Source of the DNA: an uncultured bacterium
Lineage (GTDB): Bacteria > Patescibacteriota > Minisyncoccia > Phycocordibacterales > PALSA-1337
Assembly: GCA_963848635.1 (NCBI GenBank)
Contig: CAWKEA010000009.1
Location: 1 to 44,857, forward strand
Length of the DNA: 44,857 nt
Direction: 5' to 3'
The notes below the pieces were generated by a model. That model had not been told where the DNA came from. It saw only the letters and a program-made list of their open reading frames with translations, and searched no databases. Shown here in pieces: positions 1,659-28,844 of this stretch (position 1 is its first letter; every line of letters begins with the position of its first letter). The position numbers were made by a program, and so were the translations under genes.

Positions 1659-1834
1659 GTCGAGAAGCGGTCGACTTCCGCTTCTCTCATCAACCGTTCT
1701 TCGCGCCTCGCACACATCGGTATGTCGAGAGCGCACCCCTGTTGCGACTAGCAACTGGGGGAATGCGCGGAGACATACGGGTGTGTGCGTAGGCGCGCCA
1801 CTAAACCATCGTGGAAGCGGAAGTGGGCCGCTTC
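1659..1834 (+). repeat. structured element E1: conserved 5' hairpin block, ~100 nt rod-like variable hairpin, conserved 3' hairpin
   Basis: 5' hairpin gagaagcgg/ccgcttctc (1662-1686). Central stem 1703-1726 pairs with 1772-1796 and has nested inner stems. 3' hairpin gaagcgg-aagtggg-ccgcttc (1814-1834). Both end blocks recur at 8583-8725. Confidence 0.75.
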
Positions 1835-1892: not shown

Positions 1893-2084
1893 TCTGGTCC
1901 GCGACCGCGCCCTCATTTTTTCGCCTCGTGCGCCCTTTGCCCTGATTCCGAAAATCCCAAAAAAATCCAGCAATGAAGCGGGCGGGGCGGAAGGAGGGGT
2001 CTGGGGAGGAATTCCGCCCCGCCCTCCACTTGTGGTTTGCGATGGTGCGATTTCGCCCACGGAATGCGATTTCACTTTTTTGCG
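1893..2084 (+). repeat. inverted repeat IR-A, right copy; a duplicated, inverted copy of the recombinase gene's 3' end
   Basis: The + strand translates to PLVRDRALIFSPRAPFALIPKIPKKSSNEAGGAEGGVWGGIPPRPPLVVCDGAISPTECDFTFL, nearly identical to the recombinase tail encoded at 1-192 on the minus strand. Confidence 0.9.
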
Positions 2085-2330
2085 GCAGTTTTTACTTGAA
2101 GTTCGAACATTTTTCGCTGAAAATCCGCAGGCGTGATTGTTTCGTGAATGAAATGCGGAGTCGCTTCGCTCCACTGTTTTTTGCCTCCGCCGGCTCGATC
2201 TTTTGATCGCATCGCAATCACAAAAAGGTGGAGAGGGCGGACGGAGGACTGGGGTGTGGGGGAAGGACTCCGTCCGCCCTCACTATTTGTTTTGGTCGCG
2301 CGCCGGATTGGTGATTGGGGGGGGTGGGTT
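2079..2330 (+). repeat. inverted repeat IR-B, left copy (reverse complement of 8783-9032); contiguous with IR-A right copy
   Basis: By-eye alignment shows ~10 mismatches in ~250 nt plus a homopolymer length difference (G8 here, C6 in the partner). Contains a perfect 14-bp hairpin, 2233-2246 with 2268-2281. Confidence 0.9.
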
Positions 2331-2373
2331 AGGTTACTTTTTGAGGTGTGGATTTGGCGGTATTCCTTTAATT

Positions 2374-2390
2374 GGGGGGGGTGATATACT
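2374..2390 (+). promoter_or_regulatory. G8 tract abutting an extended -10 (TGaTATACT) upstream of the giant surface-protein gene
   Basis: attGGGGGGGGTGATATACT lies 64 nt upstream of the ATG at 2454. No convincing -35 was found. Confidence 0.4.
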
Positions 2391-2453
2391 AGTAAGTAAG
2401 CAATTACAAAGTGCGAAATCACGCAATCACAAATATTACAAACTTTTAATAAC

Positions 2454-5400
2454 ATGACCCATAAACGCCATGCGATTCACGAGAGAGAGAGAGAGAGAGT
2501 AGAAGCTCCCTCTAAAATAGCTAAAAAGATTTTTCTGTGGAGCACGTTCCTCTTAGGAATTTTTTGTGTATTGGTTTTTCCTACTAAGAGTTTCGCGAGT
2601 AATGTTTGGATTCAGAGAACAGTTCCCGGAACTCCGATAATAAATAGTATTACCAATTCTTCGGACGGTAATACTATTTACTTGGCAACTGCTTCTTCAA
2701 GCACCTCTACCGGATACATTTATATCTCGACAAATAACGGAGTCAGTTTCGCTTCAAGTACCAATAATGCTGGTATTCATAGGTGGGCATCCATTACATC
2801 TTCGGGAGACGGGACTAAGGTATATGCGGCAACAGTGTGTTCAGTCTCTGCGAATTGCGGTGGCACGGCTGATTATGTATACACCTCTACGAATAGCGGT
2901 ATAACATGGAACAACCTTACATCTCTAGGAACAGCTTTAGATTGGGTCAGCGTCTCAACTTCAAATGACGGCACGAAAGTGATTGCGCAAGATAACAGCA
3001 CCCATACGTACGTCTCGGCCAACAGCGGTGCTTCATGGGCCACGACTACAGGTATCGGTAATGGCAATGTGAGCGTGTCTCCTGACGGCACAATGTTCGT
3101 GGCCACCGATAGCTCCGGTAATGTGTACGTTTCGACAAATAATGGCGCATCATGGGCGACCACGACAGCTGCAACTGTGGGAGGAGCAGTTAGATTTGTT
3201 GTTGCTACGAACGGGAATATCATATACAAGAGCGGGTATCCATACGTATATAAGTCAACGAACGGAGGCGCTTCGTGGTCAGCATTGACTGCTGTCGGAT
3301 CTACTACCTGGGCAAACATATCGGCATCTTCCGATGGCAGTCATGTCGTTGTCGCCGGGGCAAACGGCATAGATAACTTTGCATACTTGTCAGCCGACGG
3401 AGGTGCCACATGGACTTTCTATAACAATGGGCTAGGCTGGGTCTTTGCATATGCCCAAGACGGAACAAAAATCGCGGCGGCGGCAGGCAGTGCAGTGTAC
3501 GTCAATAGTCCTGTGCCGACGGTTACTACTGCGGCGGCATCGAGTATAACGGCAACAGGGGTTACTTTGAATGCCACACTCGTCTATGACGGCGGTGCCG
3601 CAGTCTCATCAACAACTGTTGAAGGTTTCAATTATGGTCTTACCACAACGTACGGTTCGGCTACTTCTACTACTGGTACGACAACGCCTGGTGCATGGTC
3701 GCAGACAGTAACAGGATTGACTTGTAATACCGTCTACTATTTCCAGTCATATGCCACCAATATTAACGGAACTGGTAATGGAACCGGGTCATATTTCAAG
3801 ACATTGCCGTGTTCCAGCAATTTTTCAATCGATCGTAGCTCGATACCAACTTCTGCGACGACCGTGATCAATCTGACTGGAAATGCTACCGGCTGGACAG
3901 CCGGAACTCCGGGCACTCCAACATTTTCAGTTTCCGGAGTTACCGGCGCATCGATATCATCTCAAACAGTATCTGATGCGACGCACGCATCGCTATCGAT
4001 AGTTACCGGTACTGCCACGGGTACATTGACAATCACTGATCCGAGTCACAGCACCACACAAACCACTCTCGTGAGCCAAGCCACGAATGTTATTGCGCCA
4101 GATGCAACGGGTATATTTCTCACTCCTGGTAGCTACGATTCAGGGACCTATGTCCAATGGGAACATACTGCCGCAGGGGCAAAGTTTAATTTCACGGGAG
4201 GCATTCTGAAAGCTGATTTGGATGAGAGCCTCTTGGTCAATGTCGGACGAGCCAAAGCCAGTTTCCCGTATATCAACTGGCGCGTTGACGGAGGATCATG
4301 GCAACGTACGCAAGCGTATCCAGATTCAACAACAACGCAAGTAATGACGTTGGCAACGGGGCTATCGACCACAACGACCCATTCGGCTGAAGTCCGTTTC
4401 GAGCAAGGGTCTGAAACTGATACTTGGACTCCACAGGATGCAGTCAACCTTACAGGCTGGGAAGTACAGAGCGGAAGCGCGATATCCGCGCCTTCGCCTG
4501 AAGCCAGCACTACTGTTTCAGCCGCGGGCGTTTCGTTGGGACTTCGACCGAAACGCATGATGATTTTTGGAGATTCGATAACGCGCGGATACAATGCAGA
4601 GTCCAGTTCGACCGCACCAGGACAAGATCTTACAGGGGCAGGACATACATTCGCGCTTGATAGCTGGGGACCATTATTTGCTCAAGCCCTAGACGCTGAA
4701 GTAGGCATCGTAGCATATAGCGGTCAAGGTTGGCGTCACTTTATGACCAATGGCGGACCGGCATTCCCCGTCTCATATCCGATGTATGATTCTACGCACT
4801 CAAGGACGATGCCCTCAAATCTTGACTATGTGGTTGTAGCGCTGTCGGTAAATGATAGTACCGCATATAACATGGCCAATACTGTCTCTACGTGGCTTAC
4901 AAATGTCCGTGCCGCAGTAGGAGCAAGCACGTATATATTTGTAGCGCCAAACTTAGGCGATGTAAGTTCGACAATCGTCAACAATGTCGACTCGGGAGTA
5001 AATGCATATAAAGCGGCAAATCCCACAGATACGAAGGTATTCATAATTGATCCGGGAGGTAATTTCATGGGCACGCCACCAGGGACATATTGGTATCAGG
5101 GCACCGTGCATCCTAACAATCTCGGTCATGCCCTGCTCGCTTCTGACTTAGCAACTTTGGCCGTTGCCGATGTGCCGACGGTCATATCTAGCATCGCCTC
5201 AAGCACTACGAGCACGAGTGTTACGATCACCTGGACGACAGACAGGGCGGCTACGAGTCTTGTAAATTATGGCACGACCGCATCATATACAGCCTCGTCA
5301 ACATTCAGCGGAAGTCTGACACTCTCTCACAGCGTGACCATATCTAGTCTCTCGCCTTTGACGACGTATCACTTCCAGATATCTTCGATCGATACCGCTT

Positions 5401-7436
5401 CATCAACAGCAACCTCCAGCGATCTTACATTCACGACACCCTCTAGTGTCACTGCTCCGACGCTTCTAGTGCCCACATTCTCCGGCGTGACCCAAACCGG
5501 AGCTACCGCTTCAAGCACGATCAGCGCGACAGGAGGAGCAAACGCGACTGTTGAAGGTTTTGCTTGGGGCACAAATACCTCGTATGCTCTCGGCACCACT
5601 TCATCGAGCGGTTCATTCGGAATATCGGATTTCTCGAATGCCACAACCACTCTTACTTGCGGCACTACTTACCATGTCCGCGCTTACGCCACCAACTCCG
5701 GAGGTACAGGATATAGCTCTGACGCAAGCACGACAACAAGCCCATGCAATGCCACGACATATACTTTCACTGGACCATCGAATGGTAACGCCGGGAGCGC
5801 ATCTACCATCTTCACCGTGACGCCAAATGGGCCATATAACAGCACGATCACCCTGACACCGACGGGAGGTTTCGGCCTTTCTCCAACTATATTGACATTC
5901 TCAAACTCAAGCGCTCCGCAAACTTTCACCATCACCCCGACAGTCGCAGGCTCGATCACTCTCACACCTACCGACAATGGAGGACTGACTGATGCTTCAC
6001 CGCTCACCTATACGGCTAACGCTGTTGTTCCCGGACAACCGACTTCTGTCACCGCCGCAACCTCAACTCCGAATCAGGCCACGGTCACCTTCTCCGCTCC
6101 AGGATTTAATGGCGGTTCTACCATCCTCTACTACCTCGCCTCCTCAACCCCAGGCAATTTCACGGGAACTTCAAGCGGTGCCCCCATCGTCGTCTCGAGC
6201 CTCACGAACGGCACTTCATATACCTTCGCCGTCTACGCCGTGAATGCGGCCGGCACGAGCACTCCTTCTTCGGCTTCCAATGCAGTGACACCTATCGGCG
6301 TGCCCGGCGCTCCGACGGGAGCGGTCGCCACAGCCGGCAATACCCAGGCGGTAGTTAACTTTAGCGCACCAGGGTCGACCGGCGGCAGTCAGATCACCGG
6401 CTATACAGTGACATCAAGTCCTGTCGGAGGCACTGATACTAATGCAGGTACGACTGCTCTCACCCATACCGTGACGGGCCTCGCTAATGGAACGCCGTAT
6501 ACTTTCACTGTGACTGCCACCAATGTCGTCGGTACAGGAAGTGCTTCCAGCGCATCATCTCCGGTTACTCCTTCTACTGTTGCGGCCGTGTCAACTAACG
6601 TGGTTACAAACATCGCTTCAACCAGCGCGACATTGAGCGGTTCGATCACTTCGACCGGAGGTGCCGATGCTAATCAACATGGTTTTGCTTACAGCACCGA
6701 TCAGAATCTGATAAGTTCCGTTTCCACGACGACGTTAGGTTCGTTCACAGGTACGGGTACCTTCACGAGTTCCGTGACCGGACTTACGTCTAATACCACC
6801 TATTATGTGCGCACATATTCCGTCAATGCTTCAGGCACGACCACTGGCTCAATCATCTCCTTCCTGACCTTGCCTGCGGTTCCAACCATGACCACTCAAA
6901 CTCCAACAGCTGGATCAGGCATCTTCTTCACGGCTAATGGAAACATCACCGCGACTGCTGTGAATGCCACTGCCCGTGGCTTCGTCTATGGCACTACTCT
7001 GGCATACGGAGCGACCACAACCTCAAGCGGCTCATTCGGCACGGGCGCCTACACCGCTACGATCACCGGCCTTACTTGTAACACGCTCTATCATATCGCT
7101 TCATACGCCGTGAATACCGGAGGCACAGGCTATGGTTCTGATCAAACTATCACGACCGGTGTATGTACGAAGCCGACATTGACCGTGCAAGTGGCTTCTG
7201 GCATTACGACGACTGCGGCTACTCTAAACGGCTCCATGACCGCTGACGGCAACGCCTCCTCTACAGTTGAAGGATTTAATTGGGGTACGGACACCAGCTA
7301 CGGTCAGGTAGCCTCCGCCAGCGGAACCTTCGGCATTGGATCTTTCTCGCAATCGTTGTCTAGTCTGACTTGCGGCACGACATATCACTTCCAAGTCTAT
7401 CGCTACCAACATCGCAGGACAGGGGACCTCGACTGA
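2454..7436 (+). CDS. giant cell-surface protein: N-terminal signal anchor, BNR/Asp-box (sortilin-like) beta-propeller repeats, SGNH/GDSL hydrolase domain and many FN3-like repeats. It is truncated by a frameshift and continues in ORF 7549-7938.
   Basis: Repeated S-x-(D/N)-x-G-x-(S/T)-W motifs (YVSTNNGASW, YTSTNSGITW, YKSTNGGASW, LSADGGATW). GDSL block MMIFGDSITRGYN and block V GTVHPNNLGH. At least 10 repeats of the type VEGFxWG...Y....S..G.F.....GLTCxTxYHxxAYATNxxGTGY, plus classic FN3 (PGxPTxVTA...FTV.A.N..G). Confidence 0.85.
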   Translation: MTHKRHAIHERERERVEAPSKIAKKIFLWSTFLLGIFCVLVFPTKSFASNVWIQRTVPGTPIINSITNSSDGNTIYLATASSSTSTGYIYISTNNGVSFASSTNNAGIHRWASITSSGDGTKVYAATVCSVSANCGGTADYVYTSTNSGITWNNLTSLGTALDWVSVSTSNDGTKVIAQDNSTHTYVSANSGASWATTTGIGNGNVSVSPDGTMFVATDSSGNVYVSTNNGASWATTTAATVGGAVRFVVATNGNIIYKSGYPYVYKSTNGGASWSALTAVGSTTWANISASSDGSHVVVAGANGIDNFAYLSADGGATWTFYNNGLGWVFAYAQDGTKIAAAAGSAVYVNSPVPTVTTAAASSITATGVTLNATLVYDGGAAVSSTTVEGFNYGLTTTYGSATSTTGTTTPGAWSQTVTGLTCNTVYYFQSYATNINGTGNGTGSYFKTLPCSSNFSIDRSSIPTSATTVINLTGNATGWTAGTPGTPTFSVSGVTGASISSQTVSDATHASLSIVTGTATGTLTITDPSHSTTQTTLVSQATNVIAPDATGIFLTPGSYDSGTYVQWEHTAAGAKFNFTGGILKADLDESLLVNVGRAKASFPYINWRVDGGSWQRTQAYPDSTTTQVMTLATGLSTTTTHSAEVRFEQGSETDTWTPQDAVNLTGWEVQSGSAISAPSPEASTTVSAAGVSLGLRPKRMMIFGDSITRGYNAESSSTAPGQDLTGAGHTFALDSWGPLFAQALDAEVGIVAYSGQGWRHFMTNGGPAFPVSYPMYDSTHSRTMPSNLDYVVVALSVNDSTAYNMANTVSTWLTNVRAAVGASTYIFVAPNLGDVSSTIVNNVDSGVNAYKAANPTDTKVFIIDPGGNFMGTPPGTYWYQGTVHPNNLGHALLASDLATLAVADVPTVISSIASSTTSTSVTITWTTDRAATSLVNYGTTASYTASSTFSGSLTLSHSVTISSLSPLTTYHFQISSIDTASSTATSSDLTFTTPSSVTAPTLLVPTFSGVTQTGATASSTISATGGANATVEGFAWGTNTSYALGTTSSSGSFGISDFSNATTTLTCGTTYHVRAYATNSGGTGYSSDASTTTSPCNATTYTFTGPSNGNAGSASTIFTVTPNGPYNSTITLTPTGGFGLSPTILTFSNSSAPQTFTITPTVAGSITLTPTDNGGLTDASPLTYTANAVVPGQPTSVTAATSTPNQATVTFSAPGFNGGSTILYYLASSTPGNFTGTSSGAPIVVSSLTNGTSYTFAVYAVNAAGTSTPSSASNAVTPIGVPGAPTGAVATAGNTQAVVNFSAPGSTGGSQITGYTVTSSPVGGTDTNAGTTALTHTVTGLANGTPYTFTVTATNVVGTGSASSASSPVTPSTVAAVSTNVVTNIASTSATLSGSITSTGGADANQHGFAYSTDQNLISSVSTTTLGSFTGTGTFTSSVTGLTSNTTYYVRTYSVNASGTTTGSIISFLTLPAVPTMTTQTPTAGSGIFFTANGNITATAVNATARGFVYGTTLAYGATTTSSGSFGTGAYTATITGLTCNTLYHIASYAVNTGGTGYGSDQTITTGVCTKPTLTVQVASGITTTAATLNGSMTADGNASSTVEGFNWGTDTSYGQVASASGTFGIGSFSQSLSSLTCGTTYHFQVYRYQHRRTGDLD
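2480..2498 (+). repeat. (GA)9 dinucleotide microsatellite inside the 5' coding region of the giant gene
   Basis: cacGAGAGAGAGAGAGAGAGAGta encodes HERERERV. It sits between the start codon and the signal-anchor helix. Confidence 0.95.
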
Positions 7437-7548
7437 CCAATCGGTCATAACTTCGGCGTGCCCTGTAACTGCCACGCCTACAGTTACCACAAGCGTCAGC
7501 TCCGGAGGAGGCGGCAGTGCCTCAAGCCAAGTTTCTAATCTTCTCTCC

Positions 7549-7938
7549 ATGGGCTTCACCTCTCTGGCCCAACAAGTTGCCAAGCAATACGGCTTGACGA
7601 TCCCGAACACACCAGAGACGGTCCCATCGACGCCATCCACTCCGATAGCTCCTGCATCAGGAGGCCAGTCGTTCACTCGAACGTTGAGAGTCGGCGTGAC
7701 AAACACTGACGTCAAAAGACTGCAGATCTTCCTGAATCAGCAAGGCTTCACGGTCGCCAAGAAGGGCGCTGGCTCTCCTGGACACGAGACGACCTACTTT
7801 GGCCCGGCTACCAAAGTGGCTCTTATGAAATTCCAGCTTGCTTATAAATCACAGACTCTCGACCCGCAAGAACTGAAAGCACCAACAGGGTTTTTCGGAG
7901 TGGATACGATGAAGGCGGTGAACAAGTTGGTGAAGTGA
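7549..7938 (+). CDS. peptidoglycan-binding (PG_binding_1-like) domain protein; almost certainly the displaced C-terminus of the giant protein
   Basis: LRVGVTNTDVKRLQIFLNQQGFTVAKKGAGSPGHETTYFGPATKVALMKFQ matches the PGB1 pattern. This frame is open back to 7402, where it continues the FN3-like repeat consensus (YATNIAGQGTSTDQ). Confidence 0.8.
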   Translation: MGFTSLAQQVAKQYGLTIPNTPETVPSTPSTPIAPASGGQSFTRTLRVGVTNTDVKRLQIFLNQQGFTVAKKGAGSPGHETTYFGPATKVALMKFQLAYKSQTLDPQELKAPTGFFGVDTMKAVNKLVK

Positions 7939-7947
7939 CAAATATAT

Positions 7948-8520
7948 ATGGATGACGATCAAACTCCAGATGTAGCAGTCACACCTACGGCAGAAGCCCA
8001 AACTCCTGAAACACCCATTTCTAGCCAGCCCACAGCATCCACGCCAGTCGATATGCCACCAGAGGCCCCAGAATCGCCTACAAACGCTTCTACAAACGTT
8101 CCTGTAGAAAGTCAAAATGAAGGGTTAAATCAGCCAGAAAGCGAGGTGCCGGAATCATCGAATGAGGCTCCAAATTTGCAGCCAGTTCCCGTTGAGTCAG
8201 CGCCAGCTCCTGCGTCCGCGCCGGCGTCACTGACTCCGTTAGCACCACAGCCGCAGTCGCCGGCGCAACAAGATCAAACCGGCTTCATTCGCGCGTTGCT
8301 CGCCAAAGCTCAAGCTAAAATCCAGTCCAACAAACAGAAGAAGTTCGACAAAATCATCCAATACGCACAGAAAATGAAAATTATTGCCAACGAAGATATG
8401 CAGAAGCTTTTGCACATCTCCAGCGCTACTGCGACCCGATATCTGGTCAAACTAGTCCAGCAAGGTCGTCTGGCTCGCGTGGGGAACCCCCGCGATGCCA
8501 AATATCAATTCATGCGCTAG
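7948..8520 (+). CDS. hypothetical protein with a P/S/T/E/Q-rich disordered N-terminal half and a C-terminal winged-helix HTH
   Basis: The C-terminus reads IANEDMQKLLHISSATATRYLVKLVQQGRLARVGNPRDAKYQF, an HTH/wHTH pattern as seen in Fic-associated or DeoR-like DNA-binding domains. Confidence 0.6.
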   Translation: MDDDQTPDVAVTPTAEAQTPETPISSQPTASTPVDMPPEAPESPTNASTNVPVESQNEGLNQPESEVPESSNEAPNLQPVPVESAPAPASAPASLTPLAPQPQSPAQQDQTGFIRALLAKAQAKIQSNKQKKFDKIIQYAQKMKIIANEDMQKLLHISSATATRYLVKLVQQGRLARVGNPRDAKYQFMR

Positions 8521-8524
8521 AAAA

Positions 8525-8554
8525 CTTGTGGCTCATGTCCACCAAATGAGCCAC
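8525..8554 (+). repeat. hairpin repeat hp1 (cttgtggctcat-gtccaccaa-atgagccac), direct repeat of 8750-8779
   Basis: 9-bp perfect stem immediately after the stop of ORF 7948-8520, so it may double as a terminator stem. Confidence 0.8.
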
Positions 8555-8582
8555 GTGCGTTTCTGATTTACCACCGAACTCG

Positions 8583-8725
8583 GTCGAGAAGCGGCCGACC
8601 TCCGCTTCTTCCATCAACCGTTCTTCGCGTCCGGCGGAATGTCGGTGCGGCGAAATGCAATGAAGCCGCACGGACTGACGCTGGACGCGTCACATTCCTC
8701 CGTTGAAGCGGAAGTGGGCCGCTTC
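8583..8725 (+). repeat. structured element E2, same family and same orientation as E1
   Basis: The 5' 47 nt has 43/47 identity to E1 1659-1705. The last 22 nt is identical to the E1 3' end. The ~68 nt core is unrelated to E1 but self-complementary (cgcgtcc/ggacgcg; gtcggtgcggc/gccgcacggac). Confidence 0.75.
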
Positions 8726-8749
8726 AAGCTTCAAAACCTGTGCTAAAAT

Positions 8750-8779
8750 GCTTGTGGCTCAATTCCACCAATTGAGCCA
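8750..8779 (+). repeat. hairpin repeat hp2 (cttgtggctcaat-tccacc-aattgagccac)
   Basis: Direct repeat of hp1, on the other side of E2. Confidence 0.8.
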
Positions 8780-8782
8780 CAC

Positions 8783-9032
8783 CCTTCCCCCCAATCACCA
8801 ATCCGGCGCACAGCCAAAACAAATAGTGAGGGCGGACGGAGTCCTTCCCCCACACCCCCAGGCCTCCGTCCGCCCTCTCCACCTTTTTGTGATTGCGATG
8901 CGATCAGAAGATTGAGCCGGCGGAGGCAAAAAACAGTGGAGCGAAGCGACTCCGCATTTCATTCACGAAACAATCACGCCTGCGGATTTTCAGCGAAAAA
9001 AGTTCGAACTTCAAGTAAAAACTGCCGCAAAA
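8783..9032 (-). repeat. inverted repeat IR-B, right copy
   Basis: Reverse complement of 2079-2330. Carries the same 14-bp hairpin (8828-8841 with 8864-8877), followed by a T5 run on the + strand. Confidence 0.9.
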
Positions 9033-9392
9033 TAATGAACCCGAGCTATGCGAGGGTGAATTTATTTTGCGTGAGAGAGCGATGCGACTGCTCGCATCGC
9101 GTGATGGGATTCGAAAAGGTTCTCCCAAATTTTCGAAAAGTGAGCGTAGCGAGCTTTGAGAAAATGGGAAACCTGTACTGAAGCCGTAGGCTTCGAATCC
9201 CATCCTCTCCGCACTTGGATTTTGGTATCGGATGACCCTGAGGGCTATGTAAAACAAGGGTCGTTTGGAATCGTTCGAATCCCGCAAAGGTACACCCCTC
9301 TGCGGGATTCGAACTTTTAGCTGAAGTATCCTCTTTTAGAGCAGACATCATCCTTTAAATATAGTCAAAAATATGCTAGGTTAAGTCCAATT

Positions 9393-9953
9393 ATGCTTCT
9401 AAAAAGAATCAGAGAAATATCGAATATCGGAAGATTCTGCAGCTGCAAAGGCATCGCTGGTATTGAATTTTCTCCAGTGACGATAATCTTTGCCAATAAT
9501 GGAAATGGCAAAAGTACCTTTACGAGCATCCTCAGATCATTTCAAACGGGAAACAACAATATCCTCATCGGCAAAAAGACCTTGGGTAGCAGCGGTTCTA
9601 AAAAAGTCGAGATTGACTTTGAGGACGCAGGAAAAACACTGACGGCAAAGTTTGAGAACAAGAAATGGAATAGCACCCCAGATGAGAAGATTCATATTTT
9701 CGATACCAAGTTCATAGCTGAGAATGTCTACGATGGAGAGAATATGGATGATGACCACAAGGCAAACATGCATCGTGTCGTTGTCGGCGCCGAAGGTAAA
9801 AAATATGCCGAAGCAGTAAATGATTTCATGGGGCAGGTGAAAAAATGCGAGCAAACCAAAAAAGATTCTTCTTTACAATACTCCGCATCTCCATTCTCCA
9901 GAATATATACGATTGAAAAATTCATCGCGTTGTCAAAGAATACACATGTTTGA
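9393..9953 (+). CDS. AAA_13-type (RloC/PrrC-like) ATPase, N-terminal fragment with Walker A
   Basis: VTIIFANNGNGKSTF is a Walker A motif. The N-terminal layout matches AAA_13 ATPases. It ends at a stop overlapping the next ORF in another frame. Confidence 0.7.
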   Translation: MLLKRIREISNIGRFCSCKGIAGIEFSPVTIIFANNGNGKSTFTSILRSFQTGNNNILIGKKTLGSSGSKKVEIDFEDAGKTLTAKFENKKWNSTPDEKIHIFDTKFIAENVYDGENMDDDHKANMHRVVVGAEGKKYAEAVNDFMGQVKKCEQTKKDSSLQYSASPFSRIYTIEKFIALSKNTHV

Positions 9954-11671
9954 AAGATATTGAGGGAAAAAGAAAGGAGCTACAGTTCGCCAATCAATTC
10001 AATAAACCCGCTGACCTGAGACTCAAGTCTCCTGACCTTTCAGCGATCACGACAACACTAGAGAAGAAGATTGATTCCTTGCATGACGACGTAGAAAAAA
10101 AGATAAAGAAACATGTGGAAAAGCATACATCTGTACCCGATGTCGGCCTACCTGTACTCAATACCATCAACAATATCAGAAAGGGTGATGCATGCCCTTT
10201 CTGCGGGCAAGACACGTCAGCGGTCTCCGATCTCATGGATGCCTACCGAGTGTACTTCGATAAATCGTACCAAGACCTCCAAAAGGAAATCGCTGAGACT
10301 CTAGCTGAATTCAAGAGTTGGGATATTGACGGCGAATTAAAGATTCTTCTCCAAGAGATCGAGGAATGGCATAAAATATTAAATAGCCAAGACTTATATG
10401 ACAAGCTCGTAGCACGTATCAAGGCAAGTGCTCTCAAGAAAAATAAGGCTAATTTATTGCTACAGATAGAAAAGAAAAGTAAGGATTTCAATTATAAGGT
10501 GCCTCAAGGTTCGATTGATCTTGTCTCTGAAAGTATATCTCAAGTCCAAACCGAGATTGCTGCATACAATGCCACTATCGGCGCTTTCAAGGGAAAGATT
10601 AGCAGTAAAAAGCCTGATGAGCTCGAAAAAGAATTACAGATACTCGAAATCGCAAGGGATCGCCATTCTACGAAGTGGGACACTTTCTGTGGAAATTATA
10701 TTAAAAATGAAGAGGCTACCAAGAAAATAAAAGCCGGCCGTAAAAAAGCTATGGACGATTTGTCGGCATATTCTCAAAAGACTTTTGCAGCATATCAATC
10801 TTCTATCAATACTGTACTGGAAAATATCGGGGCTGACTTCAAGATAAAGGATTTGTCGGAGCAGAAAGACCTCAGAAAAGCAGAGGCCATATTCTGCGGT
10901 TTTGCTCTGGAATTTTTTGGTCAACACAAGGTCGACATCTCTAATTCCGATGATAAGCCGCATTTCAAAAATACCCTCAGTGAGGGCGATAAAAGCTCCT
11001 TGGCTTTCGCGCTCTTTATTTCAATCCTTTCACACAATGACAAACTCAAAGGCTGCATGGTTGTCTTCGATGATCCTATCTCTAGCTTTGATGCTGACAG
11101 GAAAAAAGCTACGGCAAAGTTGCTATTTTCACTTACGAATAGCAAAGGAGATAAACCAGCTCAGATCATTGTGCTTACTCATGAATCTGGCTTCTTGGTC
11201 AGACTGAATAAAGAATTCGGCGGTGACGCTCTTTACCTGAAAATAGCACCCAATGGTCTGAGTGGAGTAATCAAGCAGAGCAATATCGAGCGACTCGATG
11301 TGTATGAGGCCTTCCTAAAGCCGGGAGCTTTTGAGGCGCTAGATAAAATCAAGAAATGCCTCGATGGTACCACCGTCATCGATAAGAAATCTCATAGCGA
11401 ATGCCGTACGATCCTAGAGAATGCCCTAGAGGCGAAATATTATCTTGAACTTAAGGACAATATCTCGAAACATGCCGGATTGGGTGGCTATATCGATACT
11501 CTTACTACGGCAGGTCTAATGAGTCAGGCGCTTAGTACTGAATTCAAAAAACTGCTCCCCGATTTACACGAGCCACACCACAGTACTTCAGATGCTAGCA
11601 CTCAAGCTAATTCGGATGGAGATATCAAAAATATTCTAAAAACCTCACTCAGTCTATTAAAGAAGTTGTAG
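9950..11671 (+). CDS. AAA_13-type (RloC/PrrC-like) ATPase, C-terminal 573 codons: zinc-hook-like CPFC in a coiled coil, ABC signature, Walker B, and a possible anticodon-nuclease-like tail
   Basis: GDACPFCGQD; long coiled-coil region; LSEGDKSSLAFALF (signature-like); CMVVFDDPISSFD (Walker B); VLTHES (H-loop). The C-terminal CRTILENALE...LPDLHEPHHS resembles the R-x3-E...H pattern of PrrC/RloC nuclease domains. The only available start is TTG. Confidence 0.7.
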   Translation: MKDIEGKRKELQFANQFNKPADLRLKSPDLSAITTTLEKKIDSLHDDVEKKIKKHVEKHTSVPDVGLPVLNTINNIRKGDACPFCGQDTSAVSDLMDAYRVYFDKSYQDLQKEIAETLAEFKSWDIDGELKILLQEIEEWHKILNSQDLYDKLVARIKASALKKNKANLLLQIEKKSKDFNYKVPQGSIDLVSESISQVQTEIAAYNATIGAFKGKISSKKPDELEKELQILEIARDRHSTKWDTFCGNYIKNEEATKKIKAGRKKAMDDLSAYSQKTFAAYQSSINTVLENIGADFKIKDLSEQKDLRKAEAIFCGFALEFFGQHKVDISNSDDKPHFKNTLSEGDKSSLAFALFISILSHNDKLKGCMVVFDDPISSFDADRKKATAKLLFSLTNSKGDKPAQIIVLTHESGFLVRLNKEFGGDALYLKIAPNGLSGVIKQSNIERLDVYEAFLKPGAFEALDKIKKCLDGTTVIDKKSHSECRTILENALEAKYYLELKDNISKHAGLGGYIDTLTTAGLMSQALSTEFKKLLPDLHEPHHSTSDASTQANSDGDIKNILKTSLSLLKKL

Positions 11672-11684
11672 CCACATGTTGTAC

Positions 11685-12152
11685 TTATCTGATGAATTCT
11701 TTGAGCAGGGTCAGATATTTTTCTTGTAGCTCTTTACTCACCATTTTTTCAGATAGTCGCATTGGAGTAACGTTGTCTTTCATCAAGTCAGTACAAAAAT
11801 CAAAATAAAATCCTGAGGGTGTTGCGATAAATATGTGGGCAAGTTTCCAACGCTCATAAATTTCTGTCGCATTCTTTTTGATGTCATCCATATCGACATG
11901 TGATCTATACTTCACCTCAACCAAAGAGACGGATTTCGGGTTATGCGATACGAGTGCAAAATCGGGGGCGTTCCTTACGTTTTCCAGAAGCTTCTTGTAT
12001 TCAGGTGTCCCTGTGTACTGCATTAGTTCGGGGACGATTGTCTCATAGCCAAATGGGATAACAGTGTAGTTGCCTGTGTCACGGAACATTTGGTCAAAAA
12101 TAAGTTCAGCTATTTTTCCCTTAATGAGTTGTTTGGAGAAGTCTTTTTGCAT
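11685..12152 (-). CDS. small PD-(D/E)xK-fold nuclease-like protein
   Basis: GKIAELIFDQMF ... PDFALV ... VSLVEVKYRS fits the E...PD...(D/E)xK restriction-endonuclease-like motif order. Confidence 0.55.
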   Translation of the reverse strand: MQKDFSKQLIKGKIAELIFDQMFRDTGNYTVIPFGYETIVPELMQYTGTPEYKKLLENVRNAPDFALVSHNPKSVSLVEVKYRSHVDMDDIKKNATEIYERWKLAHIFIATPSGFYFDFCTDLMKDNVTPMRLSEKMVSKELQEKYLTLLKEFIR

Positions 12153-12254
12153 GATGTTTATTATACCTCATCATATAATAAAAGTATGAGGGAGCATCCT
12201 TGCCCGCCCTCTTTTTTATTGACCTTACCCTCGCCTCGGCATAGAATAGATTTC

Positions 12255-13850
12255 ATGTCTAATCCTGATACAAATAATGATACAGAAAATCCCCCTGTTA
12301 TTTTGGTAGACGGCAGCCTTTCAAAAGAGCGCTGTGAATTTTTGCTCTCATACCTAGGAAGCGAGAGCGATAAGCTTGAACGAAAGGAGTTCGGAGTTCC
12401 AGCTTCGTCATCAGAAAAGAGCCAGCTGGCCAAGGCCATAATTGCCATGGCTAATTCTGATGGCGGATATATTCTCCTTGGCATTAATGATGCCAAGGTT
12501 GTAAAAGGTATCAGGAACGTCGATCTGGATCCAGCTAAGATTAATGATCTCGCATCTTCTTTTGCCAAACCAGAAATAAAGAATCTGACCACAGTCGTCT
12601 ATGAAAAGGACGCCCTCAAGGTAGGTATCATCTTTGTGCCTCCGAGCGACAATGTTCCACATATTACGATCAAGGAGAGTGATAAATTGAATAAGAATGT
12701 TATCTATGTAAGGCACTCTGGACAGTCTGAGCCTGCGAACCATGAGGACATGGAAAAGCTGATACTGAAGGCGGTTATAAAAAGACAGAAAGAATTGATG
12801 CGTCATCTTGAGGAGACAGAGTTGCAAAAGGATGTCCGCATGATCAAGGAGCATCTACTTGGGAAAAAGGAGGCCGAGAAGCCTGATTTTTTGGTGGTCG
12901 ATGAAGAAGCTTTTGTGGCTAAGATTGATGCGCTGTTCACTGATGAAAATATCTCATCGATTAAAAAGGTCATAAAGCAGCTTTCCAAGGAGATAGTTTC
13001 GGTGTGGAAGTCCACCAAGGGCATGGATAAATCTATCGTGCTCGAGACGAAAGTCCTACGCTTCATTCCGTTGCTCAACAAGCTCACCTACGTGATGATA
13101 TTGGCGGTTGAAAATAAGATGCACGAGAAAATATTTCCTGACTGGGCGGAGGCCGTTCGTATCATATATGAATTATCAAATAAGAAGGATCTCGGCATTT
13201 CACAGATCGATGAATGGGTAACACAAGGAAACCAATTCATCAAAGCGAAAGATCACCTGACGTATACGGTTCCCGAAAAAGAAGTCATTAGCAGACTGCA
13301 TATTTTGTCGGCCTACGCTTTTAAACGCAAGGAGTATTCTTTGATTAAAAAGATAGCTGATATAGAGGTTGAGACGGTTCATGGGAACAAGTCCTATAAT
13401 GAGGCTGTCATGATGCACCCCAATTATTCACATGGTAGTGGTGAAGGAAACCTCGTCACGCTTTTTGATGAGGCAAGGGAGTTGATGACACAGAATGTAA
13501 TCTTTTTTAATTTTTTCGATAATGAGATTGAGGAGAGTTTGGACAGTCTACTTAGGGCAGATCTGCTTATTGGGTTTTCCTATTCCTTAGTTAGTCAAGT
13601 TAGACATAGCGGACATCGTCATTTTATTAATTTTGCTCGTTTTTATCCGTCGCGAGTCTGGTCGCTCATTGAAAGCATGCGTGACAATCAAAAGTATCTG
13701 ACTGATGGATTCCCAACCTATACCTTGGAGCAATTAAAAAAATACATCAATGAAGTCATTGATTTCGCGAATAAAGCGTACCCAATGATAAGCGACTGGG
13801 GTGGCTATACTTACAAGGATCTTTTTCCAGATAAAGCTGCCACTCAGTAG
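12255..13850 (+). CDS. Schlafen/AlbA_2-like (divergent AAA, putative nucleic-acid-binding) domain protein with an unknown ~350 aa C-terminal region
   Basis: SESDKLERKEFGV...SQLAKAIIAMANSDGGYILLGINDAKVVKGI matches the AlbA_2 core (E.K....l.k.i.AfaN..GG.l.iGv.d.g.v.G). The ORF is open from 12090, but that part overlaps the divergent gene, so ATG 12255 (MSNPDT) is preferred. Confidence 0.6.
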   Translation: MSNPDTNNDTENPPVILVDGSLSKERCEFLLSYLGSESDKLERKEFGVPASSSEKSQLAKAIIAMANSDGGYILLGINDAKVVKGIRNVDLDPAKINDLASSFAKPEIKNLTTVVYEKDALKVGIIFVPPSDNVPHITIKESDKLNKNVIYVRHSGQSEPANHEDMEKLILKAVIKRQKELMRHLEETELQKDVRMIKEHLLGKKEAEKPDFLVVDEEAFVAKIDALFTDENISSIKKVIKQLSKEIVSVWKSTKGMDKSIVLETKVLRFIPLLNKLTYVMILAVENKMHEKIFPDWAEAVRIIYELSNKKDLGISQIDEWVTQGNQFIKAKDHLTYTVPEKEVISRLHILSAYAFKRKEYSLIKKIADIEVETVHGNKSYNEAVMMHPNYSHGSGEGNLVTLFDEARELMTQNVIFFNFFDNEIEESLDSLLRADLLIGFSYSLVSQVRHSGHRHFINFARFYPSRVWSLIESMRDNQKYLTDGFPTYTLEQLKKYINEVIDFANKAYPMISDWGGYTYKDLFPDKAATQ

Positions 13851-19799: not shown

Positions 19800-20357
19800 T
19801 TAGTTGCCAGCGGTAGGACAAGTCGAGGAAGAGTGTGCGATGGCTGATGGATTCGTATTTCCTGTCGAATCGATGCAGAAATATTTGGTGCTGCTCACCA
19901 GCTGGCCATATATAGCAAATGAAATTACGTTCGGACTCGCTACGCCTCCTGTGGTGCTGTTCGTACCGACGAATATTTGTATCGCTCCGCCCTGCGAGAC
20001 GGCATCGTTCCATTGTGTTGCCAGATTTGCGCTAGCGGCTGTTGTTGTGGCGGCGGCAGGGCTACCAGCGGTGTACCCGGAGTTGCTTATTGTAAAGCTT
20101 CCACCAGCGGGACTGCCAGCGGTGGCTCCATAAAGATCAGTATAAACCGAGCTATTCTGCCCAGTCGAAAGAATATTACGGATCTGTTGAACGTCAGCGA
20201 CGACACGGGTATCCGATCCTCTTTTTCGGGCTGATTGCAAGCTTGCCAAAATGATCGCTGACAGCAAACCTATGATGGCGATGACGACAAGCAGTTCTAT
20301 CAAGGTAAAAGCGCTGTCTTTCTGCGCAGGACCTTTTTTCTTTTGAGAGGGAGACAT
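19800..20357 (-). CDS. type IV pilin-like protein (prepilin N-terminal cleavage/methylation domain)
   Basis: FTLIELLVVIAIIGLLSAIILASLQSARKRG. The C-terminus is paralogous to ORF 28347-28844. The ORF is open to 20399, but a TATAAT at 20402-20407 (minus strand) argues for ATG 20357. Confidence 0.8.
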   Translation of the reverse strand: MSPSQKKKGPAQKDSAFTLIELLVVIAIIGLLSAIILASLQSARKRGSDTRVVADVQQIRNILSTGQNSSVYTDLYGATAGSPAGGSFTISNSGYTAGSPAAATTTAASANLATQWNDAVSQGGAIQIFVGTNSTTGGVASPNVISFAIYGQLVSSTKYFCIDSTGNTNPSAIAHSSSTCPTAGN

Positions 20358-28346: not shown

Positions 28347-28844
28347 ATGAAAAGAAAAAATGTAAAAGGCGGTTTCACCCTCATCGAATTGCTCGTCGTC
28401 ATCGCCATCATCGGTATATTGTCCTCGATCGTCTTGGTCAGCTTGCAGTCAGCTAGAAAGAAGGGTACTGATACGCGTGTTATCGCAGACGTTCAGCAGA
28501 CTCGCGACGCTCTTGAGACTGGCTATACTGGTACTTATTATCCTGATTTGGGCAACAATAACTCGAATGCTGTGGTTGCAAGTAATTCGTCGTGTACTAT
28601 CGCCAATTGGAACAATGACACTGCCTCTCAAGGTTCAGCATTGAATACGCAACTCGGAGATGCTTGCGCACAGGGCGGCACAAATGATATTAGTATATTT
28701 GTAGCACCTGTTACTGCCTATAATACCGTAAATGCCTACGCTATCTATGGTAAGCTTGTCAGTAGCAGTAACTATTTCTGCATCGATTCAACAGGCAAGA
28801 CTAATCCTGCTACGAGCACCAACGCAGGTATCACCTGTCAGTAG
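28347..28844 (+). CDS. type IV pilin-like protein
   Basis: MKRKNVKGGFTLIELLVVIAIIGILSSIVLVSLQSARKKG: G/F cleavage site and Glu at +5. Confidence 0.88.
   Translation: MKRKNVKGGFTLIELLVVIAIIGILSSIVLVSLQSARKKGTDTRVIADVQQTRDALETGYTGTYYPDLGNNNSNAVVASNSSCTIANWNNDTASQGSALNTQLGDACAQGGTNDISIFVAPVTAYNTVNAYAIYGKLVSSSNYFCIDSTGKTNPATSTNAGITCQ

Follow-up and report, generated by a model that had tools for sequence, protein, structure and literature searches.

We analysed a stretch of 44,857 nucleotides (nt) from an uncultured bacterium of the Patescibacteriota (contig CAWKEA010000009.1 of assembly GCA_963848635.1; the whole stretch is referred to as the window), in which a gene for a large serine recombinase and a neighbouring cassette with a giant surface-protein gene are bracketed by two pairs of long inverted repeats, termed IR-A and IR-B, respectively. 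IR-B and its relationship to the recombinase are the subject of this report. The recombinase (integrase) gene lies on the minus strand at 1-1553, with its start codon at 1553 and a frame that is still open at the contig start; the encoded protein thus has at least 517 amino acids (aa), and its homologues have ~525 aa. Pfam searches identified the Resolvase (PF00239, 1e-20), Recombinase (PF07508, 1.6e-13) and Zn_ribbon_recom (PF13408, 3.3e-07) domains, and the protein matched the integrase family PHROG 95 with E = 1.7e-77, a weaker match to PHROG 125 ('DNA invertase') being limited to the catalytic part. Distant matches in the PDB were to A118 Int and SPbeta SprA. Homologues number in the thousands, in Taylorbacteria and other Patescibacteria, and every phage or plasmid integrase in the collections searched was less than 30% identical; the nearest relative in the phage collection (MT837677, 29% identity) lies beside a tRNA gene and is without long inverted repeats.

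The integrase gene is held between the arms of IR-A. The left arm, A' (1-211), overlaps the 3' end of the integrase frame, and the right arm, A, was located at 1874-2084 by comparing the window with itself (arms and junctions carry no strand assignment). The outer 169 nt of A' are 100% identical to 1916-2084, and the differences are confined to the inner 35-40 nt, which overlap the conserved end of the integrase. IR-A abuts IR-B, with an overlap at 2071-2084. IR-B itself was placed by blastn of the window against itself at 2071-2322 and, inverted, at 8787-9039 (253 columns, 96.0% identity, 9 mismatches, 1 gap, E = 3.6e-115), and a separate repeat search returned the same pair in two pieces. 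We call its arms B (proximal, 2085-2322) and B' (distal, 8787-9039, from the same self-comparison); the ten differences between them are scattered along the arm. Each arm has a perfect 14-bp GC stem, formed in the left arm (GC hairpin 2233-2281) by GAGGGCGGACGGAG (2233-2246) pairing with CTCCGTCCGCCCTC (2268-2281) across a 21-nt loop and followed by the T-rich tail ACTATTTGTTTTGG, with the same structure in the right arm. An additional small terminator-like hairpin followed by a T run is also found in each arm (2157-2172 in the left one). Open reading frames (ORFs) running through the B arms toward the junction with A were considered as genes and rejected, as they resemble translated GC-rich non-coding DNA.

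The B arms enclose 6,464 nt (2323-8786), all features of which lie on the plus strand: a unique leader with the putative promoter region of the cargo operon (2323-2453), a giant surface-protein gene (2454-7938) with Fn3, SGNH/GDSL and C-terminal PG_binding_1 domains according to Pfam, a gene for a 190-aa helix-turn-helix (HTH) protein in which a domain search found a weak MarR-like winged helix (7948-8520), and E2 (8585-8724), the second copy of a structured element whose first copy, E1 (1662-1834, plus strand), lies between the integrase start and the A arm. No ORF extends across an inner boundary of the arms, and the whole operon is within them. A simple sigma-70 scan of the leader gave no strong consensus match, and we infer that the cargo promoter lies within 2323-2453. 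The surface-protein gene is split by a frameshift into 2454-7436 (1660 aa) and 7549-7938; its homologue in a Taylorbacteria relative (locus L091) is a single 2009-aa ORF, and tblastn of this homologue against the window showed that a frame change near the G run at 7402-7424 separates the peptidoglycan (PG)-binding C-terminal domain. This frame change could reflect a pseudogene, a sequencing error or slippage. An earlier interpretation made from the letters alone (the sequence-only reading) had reported a ~96% identical inverted pair at 2079-2330 and 8783-9032, each copy with a perfect 14-bp GC hairpin and a T-rich run, meeting IR-A at a common junction near 2080 beside a serine recombinase, and enclosing an adhesin-like gene, an HTH protein gene, E2 and a promoter belonging to the cassette. 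This anatomy is borne out by the self-comparison and by the ORF and domain map, with the arm boundaries shifted to those given above, the recombinase placed between the IR-A arms on the minus strand, and the promoter located by inference.

In order to place the locus among its relatives, we gathered ~110 related loci by exact-protein look-ups, a metagenome scan with the recombinase and a genome scan with the HTH protein. Their common layout is tRNA-Ser, A', integrase, A, B, cargo, B', chromosome, and it recurs in independent samples and with independent assemblers, including sequences of 223 kb and 876 kb. On the 223-kb scaffold (L004), the order in the window's orientation is tRNA-Ser, A', recombinase, E1, A, B, restriction-modification (R-M) genes, HTH gene, E2, B', chromosome, and both repeat pairs are 99% identical. 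An inverted pair tightly flanks the integrase in 73 of 86 integrase loci, the upstream arm being the contig break point in many of them. Under strict criteria, both repeat pairs were found in 16 sufficiently long loci, where the proximal B overlaps A by 2-42 nt (mostly 4-15). The integrase reads straight into an opposite-strand tRNA gene in 60 loci, 56 of which have tRNA-Ser with one of five anticodons (gga, 16; gct, 16; tga, 13; cga, 9; act, 2), the others having tRNA-Gln (3) or tRNA-Arg (1). The cargo of relatives includes Type III R-M systems, an EcoRI-like methylase with GmrSD/HNH, D12 methylases, SF1 helicases and AbiEii-like ATPases, and in the window's own subfamily it consists of giant surface proteins with Fn3, laminin-G, beta-helix and PG-binding domains. 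Near-identical backbones can hold different cargo, e.g. in L038, L041, L053 and L083, whose HTH_3 proteins are identical.

The arm ends have the properties of recombination sites. A and B meet in the core TTGCGG (2079-2084), and the internal junction around it (2055-2112) resembles a complete attachment site of the attP type, inverted relative to the attP that excision would create. The junction of B' with the chromosomal flank, U (9010-9060), resembles an attR and reads aactgCCGCAAAATAATGAAcccg (window 9026-9046); it was compared with the tRNA-A' and B'-A' junctions. The window itself shows the attR and the internal junction only, and the tRNA-A' junction was taken from relatives: in the close relative L003 it reads cctctCCGCAAAAAAGTGAAatcg, the B'-A' junction being aactgCCGCAAAAAAGTGAAatcg, the reverse of window 2071-2094. 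The relationship is complete in L083, where the A end ...CAATTTTGGCGG (also written ...TTTTGGCGG) is followed by AGAGGGAGGGATTCGAACC at the tRNA, the same A end is followed by TGTTTGCTGGACAAAGTTCGAATG at the A-B junction, and the chromosomal end ...AAATAAAGATGGCGG (also written ...AAAGATGGCGG) is followed by TGTTTGCTGG at the U-B junction. In such triplets (tRNA with A, B with A, U with B), from the window and its relatives, a core of 5-7 nt (TGCGG or TGGCGG) is the sole shared sequence, and in every complete element it is the reverse complement of the last bases of the tRNA. This pattern matches the expectation for an attB (U'.core.tRNA) and an attP (A.core.B) that give attL and attR.

A second feature of these junctions concerns their geometry. 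A TTCGAA-type motif lies at +17 to +22 from the core in the B arm, including that of the window, versus +12 to +17 (the T-loop) in the tRNA, and this 5-bp shift is present in 26 of 28 non-redundant elements. In serine-integrase sites the distance of the zinc-ribbon motif from the centre is 5 bp shorter in attB than in attP (Rutherford et al., PMC3783163). The exact 5-bp shift therefore indicates that the B arm is a P-type half-site imitating the tRNA and that the enzyme is an integrase of classical architecture. Together with the three core-sharing junctions, it identifies the B'-U junction at ~9033 as attR and the A-B junction at ~2080 as a complete inverted attP, and it places attL just left of position 1, with the outer end of A' at the contig start as the presumed P' half-site of this attL. 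The A and B flanks of the second attP measure 120-210 nt and 200-390 nt, respectively, across elements. L091, on a contig of a Taylorbacteria metagenome-assembled genome, has the same B'-U junction as the window and a homologous U flank, indicating that the same chromosomal site is occupied in a relative.

The flank past the attR (window 9040-9392, especially 9103-9118 and 9186-9212) contains a 22-27-nt tRNA-Ser 3' fragment, ttcgaatcccatcctctccgca, which matches the L022 tRNA exactly at its 3' end, along with an inverted partial copy, the two forming a long hairpin. This hairpin is kept in L091, a similar arrangement occurs in L031, and it is absent from the other elements; the fragments are probably a relic of older insertions at the site. 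Such a fragment beyond B' (window 9186-9212, L091 and L031) was considered as the right end of the island and rejected, since none of the 13 elements with a usable probe shows one within 1.5 kb of the distal arm. A search of the window for tRNA genes with ARAGORN found none, and Rfam searches of the window and both junction regions at gathering and permissive thresholds gave only chance hairpin-like microRNA matches.

Within one element the arms are 93-100% identical (97-100% in most), whereas between elements with 85-92% identical integrases the identity of the arms is only ~84-92%, which is also the range of relatives' arms against those of the window. The arms are thus more alike within than between elements, i.e. 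they evolve in concert, which requires continuing exchange between them. The sequences therefore indicate ongoing exchange between the arms of an element.

The segments are also found in different orientations. Between genomes all isomers occur, and the integrase segment is flipped in L070, L022 and L002. In L070 (tRNA-Ser, A', integrase, A.core.B) the arms are only 81% alike, which excludes a mis-join; the L022 integrase is 95% identical to that of the window over the part held by its contig. The cargo has the window's orientation in eight of the nine close relatives with readable orientation, the window counted: HTH-E2 lies at the distal arm in L004, L014, L092, L093, L105, L106 and, judged by the U flank, L091. 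It is flipped in L088, whose integrase is 92% identical to the window's and in which the end of the PG-binding gene, HTH, E2 and B' are joined to A'-E1-integrase-A-tRNA-Ser. In all 16 distant elements examined, a small Xre/HTH_3 gene beside the proximal arm is the first gene of the cargo operon and points away from the integrase. When all loci were compared with one another, no near-identical pair differing in orientation was found. Exact-protein look-ups for the window cassette gave one 2-kb Logan contig ending in the IR-B hairpin for the HTH protein and no record for the PG-binding and AAA proteins, and none showed a second orientation in the same population. From the flipped loci and this strong bias, it appears that inversion happens but is rare, or that one isomer is favoured or the other selected against.

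Based on these observations, we consider it probable that the locus is a small integrative island served by a large serine integrase and that IR-B represents the duplicated arm on the cargo side of its att site. The island would begin at a tRNA-Ser just off the contig start, predicted to end in ...CTCTCCG directly ahead of position 1, and continue with A', integrase, E1 and A, then B, the promoter, surface-protein gene, HTH gene, E2 and B', up to the chromosome. The integrase would recombine attP (A.core.B) with an attB formed by the last bases of the tRNA-Ser gene and the downstream flank, and integration would yield attL (tRNA.core.A') and attR (B'.core.U, ~9033). A second full-length attP, the inverted A.core.B at ~2080 with flanks of 200-250 bp, would divide the element in two, with the integrase between the arms of IR-A and the cargo between those of IR-B. 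After excision, the circle would comprise one unique segment with the integrase, with or without E1, and another with the cargo, separated by inverted repeats of 320-650 bp, and the arms would recombine with each other, which would keep them alike and occasionally invert a segment. Most simply, this exchange would occur by RecA-type homologous recombination or gene conversion, with the integrase itself as a possible agent. According to the rule established for serine integrases, attP does not react with attL or attR (PMC3783163), hence RecA-type recombination is the simplest agent of both homogenisation and inversion. We are less confident that the arms of this particular copy are still recombining.

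Several points weigh against this interpretation. Both the tRNA-Ser and attL are outside the window, the contig starting exactly at the outer end of A', and the left boundary of the window's island is deduced from relatives. The ~110 loci include no circular contig and no empty site, and no gene resembling a recombination directionality factor was recognised in the elements. Inversion driven by the integrase would be non-canonical, as it would depart from the attP x attL/attR rule (PMC3783163). Flipped segments are few: the integrase has one orientation relative to the tRNA in 60 loci versus two flipped, that of L002 is also flipped relative to its own cargo, and the cargo is flipped in one of the nine close relatives (window counted) and in none of the 16 distant elements. 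Moreover, the arms of the flipped L088, L022 and L002 contigs are nearly identical, and these contigs could have been wrongly joined across the repeat. Finally, the IR-B arms of the window differ at 10 positions, more than in most relatives, and this copy may no longer be exchanging between its arms.

A more elaborate version of the island, which we place on the unlikely side, is a twin-attP design, evolved in a large and widespread family of Patescibacteria tRNA-Ser islands, in which the inverted second attP of every element is fully functional and both the integrase gene and the cargo are bounded by sites of the integrase. The integrase, in addition to RecA, would then act on attP with attL or attR, contrary to the canonical rules, inverting segments or exchanging cargo cassettes between elements, and E1, E2 and the HTH protein would serve as its regulators.

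The sequence-only reading had instead viewed the locus as a local, invertible-looking segment whose inversion would change the context of the cassette. In a programmed inverton, the recombinase would often flip the 6.5-kb cassette within the population, giving phase variation of the surface protein through altered read-through, antisense transcription or placement of E2 with respect to E1. The link that the sequence-only reading drew between IR-B and the neighbouring recombinase stands, the outer ends of the arms being recombinase half-sites and the junction at ~2080 a complete att site. Likewise, the survey it called for, i.e. for the same cassette reversed or for other cargo in relatives, gave examples of both: the PG-binding, HTH and E2 end is reversed in L088, and R-M systems or other giant surface proteins lie between the arms elsewhere. 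The coincidence of the repeat ends with recombinase sites, the surface protein as cargo in the window, this one reversed relative and the near identity of the arms are all in favour of an inverton. However, the layout is family-wide, the same arms bracket R-M or defence genes in most relatives, and the orientation is nearly fixed across assemblies. The recombinase is the integrase of a tRNA-Ser island, with the right arm of IR-B as an attR and the left arm as half of an internal inverted attP; it is a large serine recombinase of the integrase type, for which known rules forbid attP x attR. The anatomy also provides no on/off route for the adhesin. The putative promoter region is inside, and both arms have the same inward- and outward-facing hairpins, so that inversion disconnects nothing, the cargo should be expressed alike either way and an on/off adhesin switch is unlikely. 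To judge by their hairpins, the arms look like symmetric insulators against outside transcription, and adhesin expression would probably be little affected by inversion. The locus thus has the inverted repeats and the nearby recombinase gene of an inverton, and it shows neither a promoter connection nor a swap of coding ends. We regard a programmed inverton as distinctly unlikely.

We also considered that the element might be a landing pad for cassette exchange, in which inverted att sites would bar excision of the cargo alone, and two crossovers with a related incoming element, by the integrase or through arm homology, would swap or invert it. This would explain the rapid turnover of cargo, and it is in line with the association of related backbones (integrase, arms, and HTH_3 or HTH-E2 unit) with unrelated cargo, with an internal attP that is intact in the integrated state, and with the presence of two such elements in several genomes. 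Nevertheless, no exchange event was observed directly, turnover of cargo is common to genomic islands in general, and the tandem array of L031 sits at a tRNA fragment and so does not demonstrate the use of a hybrid site; cassette exchange of this kind is very unlikely. A mundane origin, as bidirectional terminator modules, generic intergenic repeats (of the repetitive extragenic palindromic or miniature inverted-repeat transposable element type) or an assembly artefact, is scarcely credible even though each arm combines a 14-bp GC hairpin and its T-rich tail with a second, smaller hairpin and a T run, and the contigs of many relatives break inside arms: IR-B has just two copies in the 44.9-kb window, B-specific words in 1.17 Mb of related loci are confined to B arms beside integrase or HTH-E2 units (counter to the generic, recombinase-independent repeat that the sequence-only reading had allowed for), ten differences between the arms do not fit a duplicated read path, the layout recurs across samples and assemblers as described above, and the outer 25 nt behave as recombinase half-sites.

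Returning to the integrase of the island, its frame is stop-free through the A arm in 62 of 62 loci, with the stop at or past the crossover, in the tRNA or in B. Among 56 distinct A tails this frame is stop-free in 55, versus 26-47 for the other five frames, and the tail, of which the arm encodes 40-70 residues, includes a Gly/Pro-rich stretch encoded by the GC hairpin. With the frame open through A, integration or inversion would alter the protein tail and its stop codon; stops are scarce in A in any case, and the observation is only suggestive. In relatives with 57-63% identity (e.g. L041, 5095-5175), the A' arm ends ~35 nt before the integrase start codon and a conserved TTTGCCAATACAAT box precedes the ATG by a few bases, which suggests a promoter overlapping the inner end of A' and a near-leaderless integrase mRNA.

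Some relatives depart from the common layout. Two elements are arranged in tandem in L031, the genomes of L059 and L084 each have a pair of elements at two of their tRNA-Ser genes, B is present three times in L063, and L102 has degenerate arrays of HTH-E2-B' units. In L089 (4577-4620) and L093 (4380-4445), the A arm abuts a common non-tRNA sequence (...gcttggag...cccgagt...), a candidate alternative target that no Rfam family matches. The L071 contig has a 2.2-kb terminal inverted duplication, which is more likely to come from an assembly path that folded back through identical B arms than from biology. A coincidence of coordinates between L016 and L021 was traced merely to a shared tRNA.

The structured element E is 130-190 nt long and consists of a 20-bp conserved basal stem, built from two GAAGCGG-N7-CCGCTTC boxes, and a variable distal hairpin; the fold z-scores are -9.5 for E1 and -6.1 for E2. 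An alignment of 34 copies showed compensatory changes in 15 of 36 pairs and strand-specific G-U pairs, and no Rfam family matches E. One copy lies between the integrase start and the A arm and the other after the HTH gene, E2 forming a conserved unit with this gene and B'. E is a candidate for a new structured RNA or for an operator pair of the HTH protein. On either side of E2 are 42-nt direct repeats (8513-8554 and 8739-8780), each of which forms a hairpin (GTGGCTCA...TGAGCCAC); the same hairpin is found beside E2 in relatives.

Beyond the island and its flank, 9393-13850 has a low GC content (42% versus 50-55%) and defence-like genes: an AAA_13 ATPase split in two ORFs (9393-9953 and 9950-11671), a TnsA-like fragment with a weak match (11685-12152) and a Schlafen/AlbA_2 protein (12090-13850). 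This region looks like a second island, devoid of an integrase, adjoining the first. A further inverted pair at 19849-20314 and 28369-28807 (72-78% identical, 8 kb apart) consists simply of two type IV pilin-like paralogues with N_methyl motifs that face in opposite directions.

Large serine integrases are prized in genome engineering because they are strictly directional and use short sites. A large natural family that appears to keep an intact inverted attP inside its integrated elements, with long arms that stay identical, raises the question of its benefit and of whether the rule that only attP x attB recombine is broken; the att sites deduced here can be synthesised and tested directly. 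The repeats also explain why Patescibacteria assemblies break beside tRNA-Ser genes, and the islands are a main vehicle for R-M and defence genes and for giant surface proteins in the reduced genomes of these bacteria, with E as a candidate new structured RNA or DNA element tied to them.

The element resembles the islands and prophages of large serine integrases (A118/LI, phiC31, Bxb1, SPbeta SprA; PMC3783163, PMC11722253) in the catalytic, recombinase, zinc-ribbon and coiled-coil architecture of the enzyme, in its short att sites with few common bases and an outer motif 5 bp nearer the centre in attB, and in having the integrase gene at one end and a specific conserved target, here a tRNA 3' end. 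Its domains, core-sharing hybrid junctions and 5-bp motif shift are those of such an island. It differs in its second complete inverted attP with flanks of 120-390 bp, in the long inverted repeats that bracket both integrase and cargo, in an integrase frame that runs through the A arm to the crossover, and in that no directionality factor was recognised. Ordinary islands are limited to attL and attR, whereas the inverted second attP is always present in these elements in addition.

The G segment of Mu with Gin and the H segment of Salmonella with Hin are segments of a few kb whose inverted-repeat ends are the crossovers and whose cargo is typically a surface or host-range function; hin lies inside its invertible segment. 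Such small serine invertases have ~190 aa and a C-terminal HTH and require 26-34-bp sites, an enhancer and Fis, and the inversion swaps coding 3' ends or a promoter. The P1 C segment and Cin provide a further layout of this kind (10.1101/2022.07.24.501295). The window shares with these systems a serine recombinase gene beside or inside a segment with inverted-repeat ends that hold the crossovers. In contrast, its integrase has ~525 aa (at least 517 in the window, with recombinase and zinc-ribbon domains, beyond a small invertase) and uses island att sites, and inversion alters no visible reading frame or promoter connection.

Long inverted repeats also split the circles of the yeast 2-micron plasmid (FLP/FRT) and of plastid genomes into two unique segments. 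FLP is a tyrosine recombinase, and the 2-micron circle is self-replicating. The excised circle proposed here would be similar in having two unique segments between inverted repeats of 320-650 bp that each hold a recombinase site, with one segment encoding the recombinase, and by analogy flip-flop isomers would be expected; an amplification role as in 2-micron would be pure analogy. Unlike 2-micron, no replication gene or circular form was seen in the elements, and viral contigs gave one match only. In engineered recombinase-mediated cassette exchange, inverted serine-integrase sites allow inversion or exchange and not excision, with an attP/attP target and an attB/attB donor. That design is man-made, whereas in the present elements one of the two flanks is a hybrid site of the attR type and exchange was not observed; if true, the twin-attP design would be a natural counterpart of this technique.

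In summary, our literature searches found no description of the layout with two inverted-repeat pairs and a second attP, and we regard the element as probably an island of a known kind with an unusual second, inverted attP.

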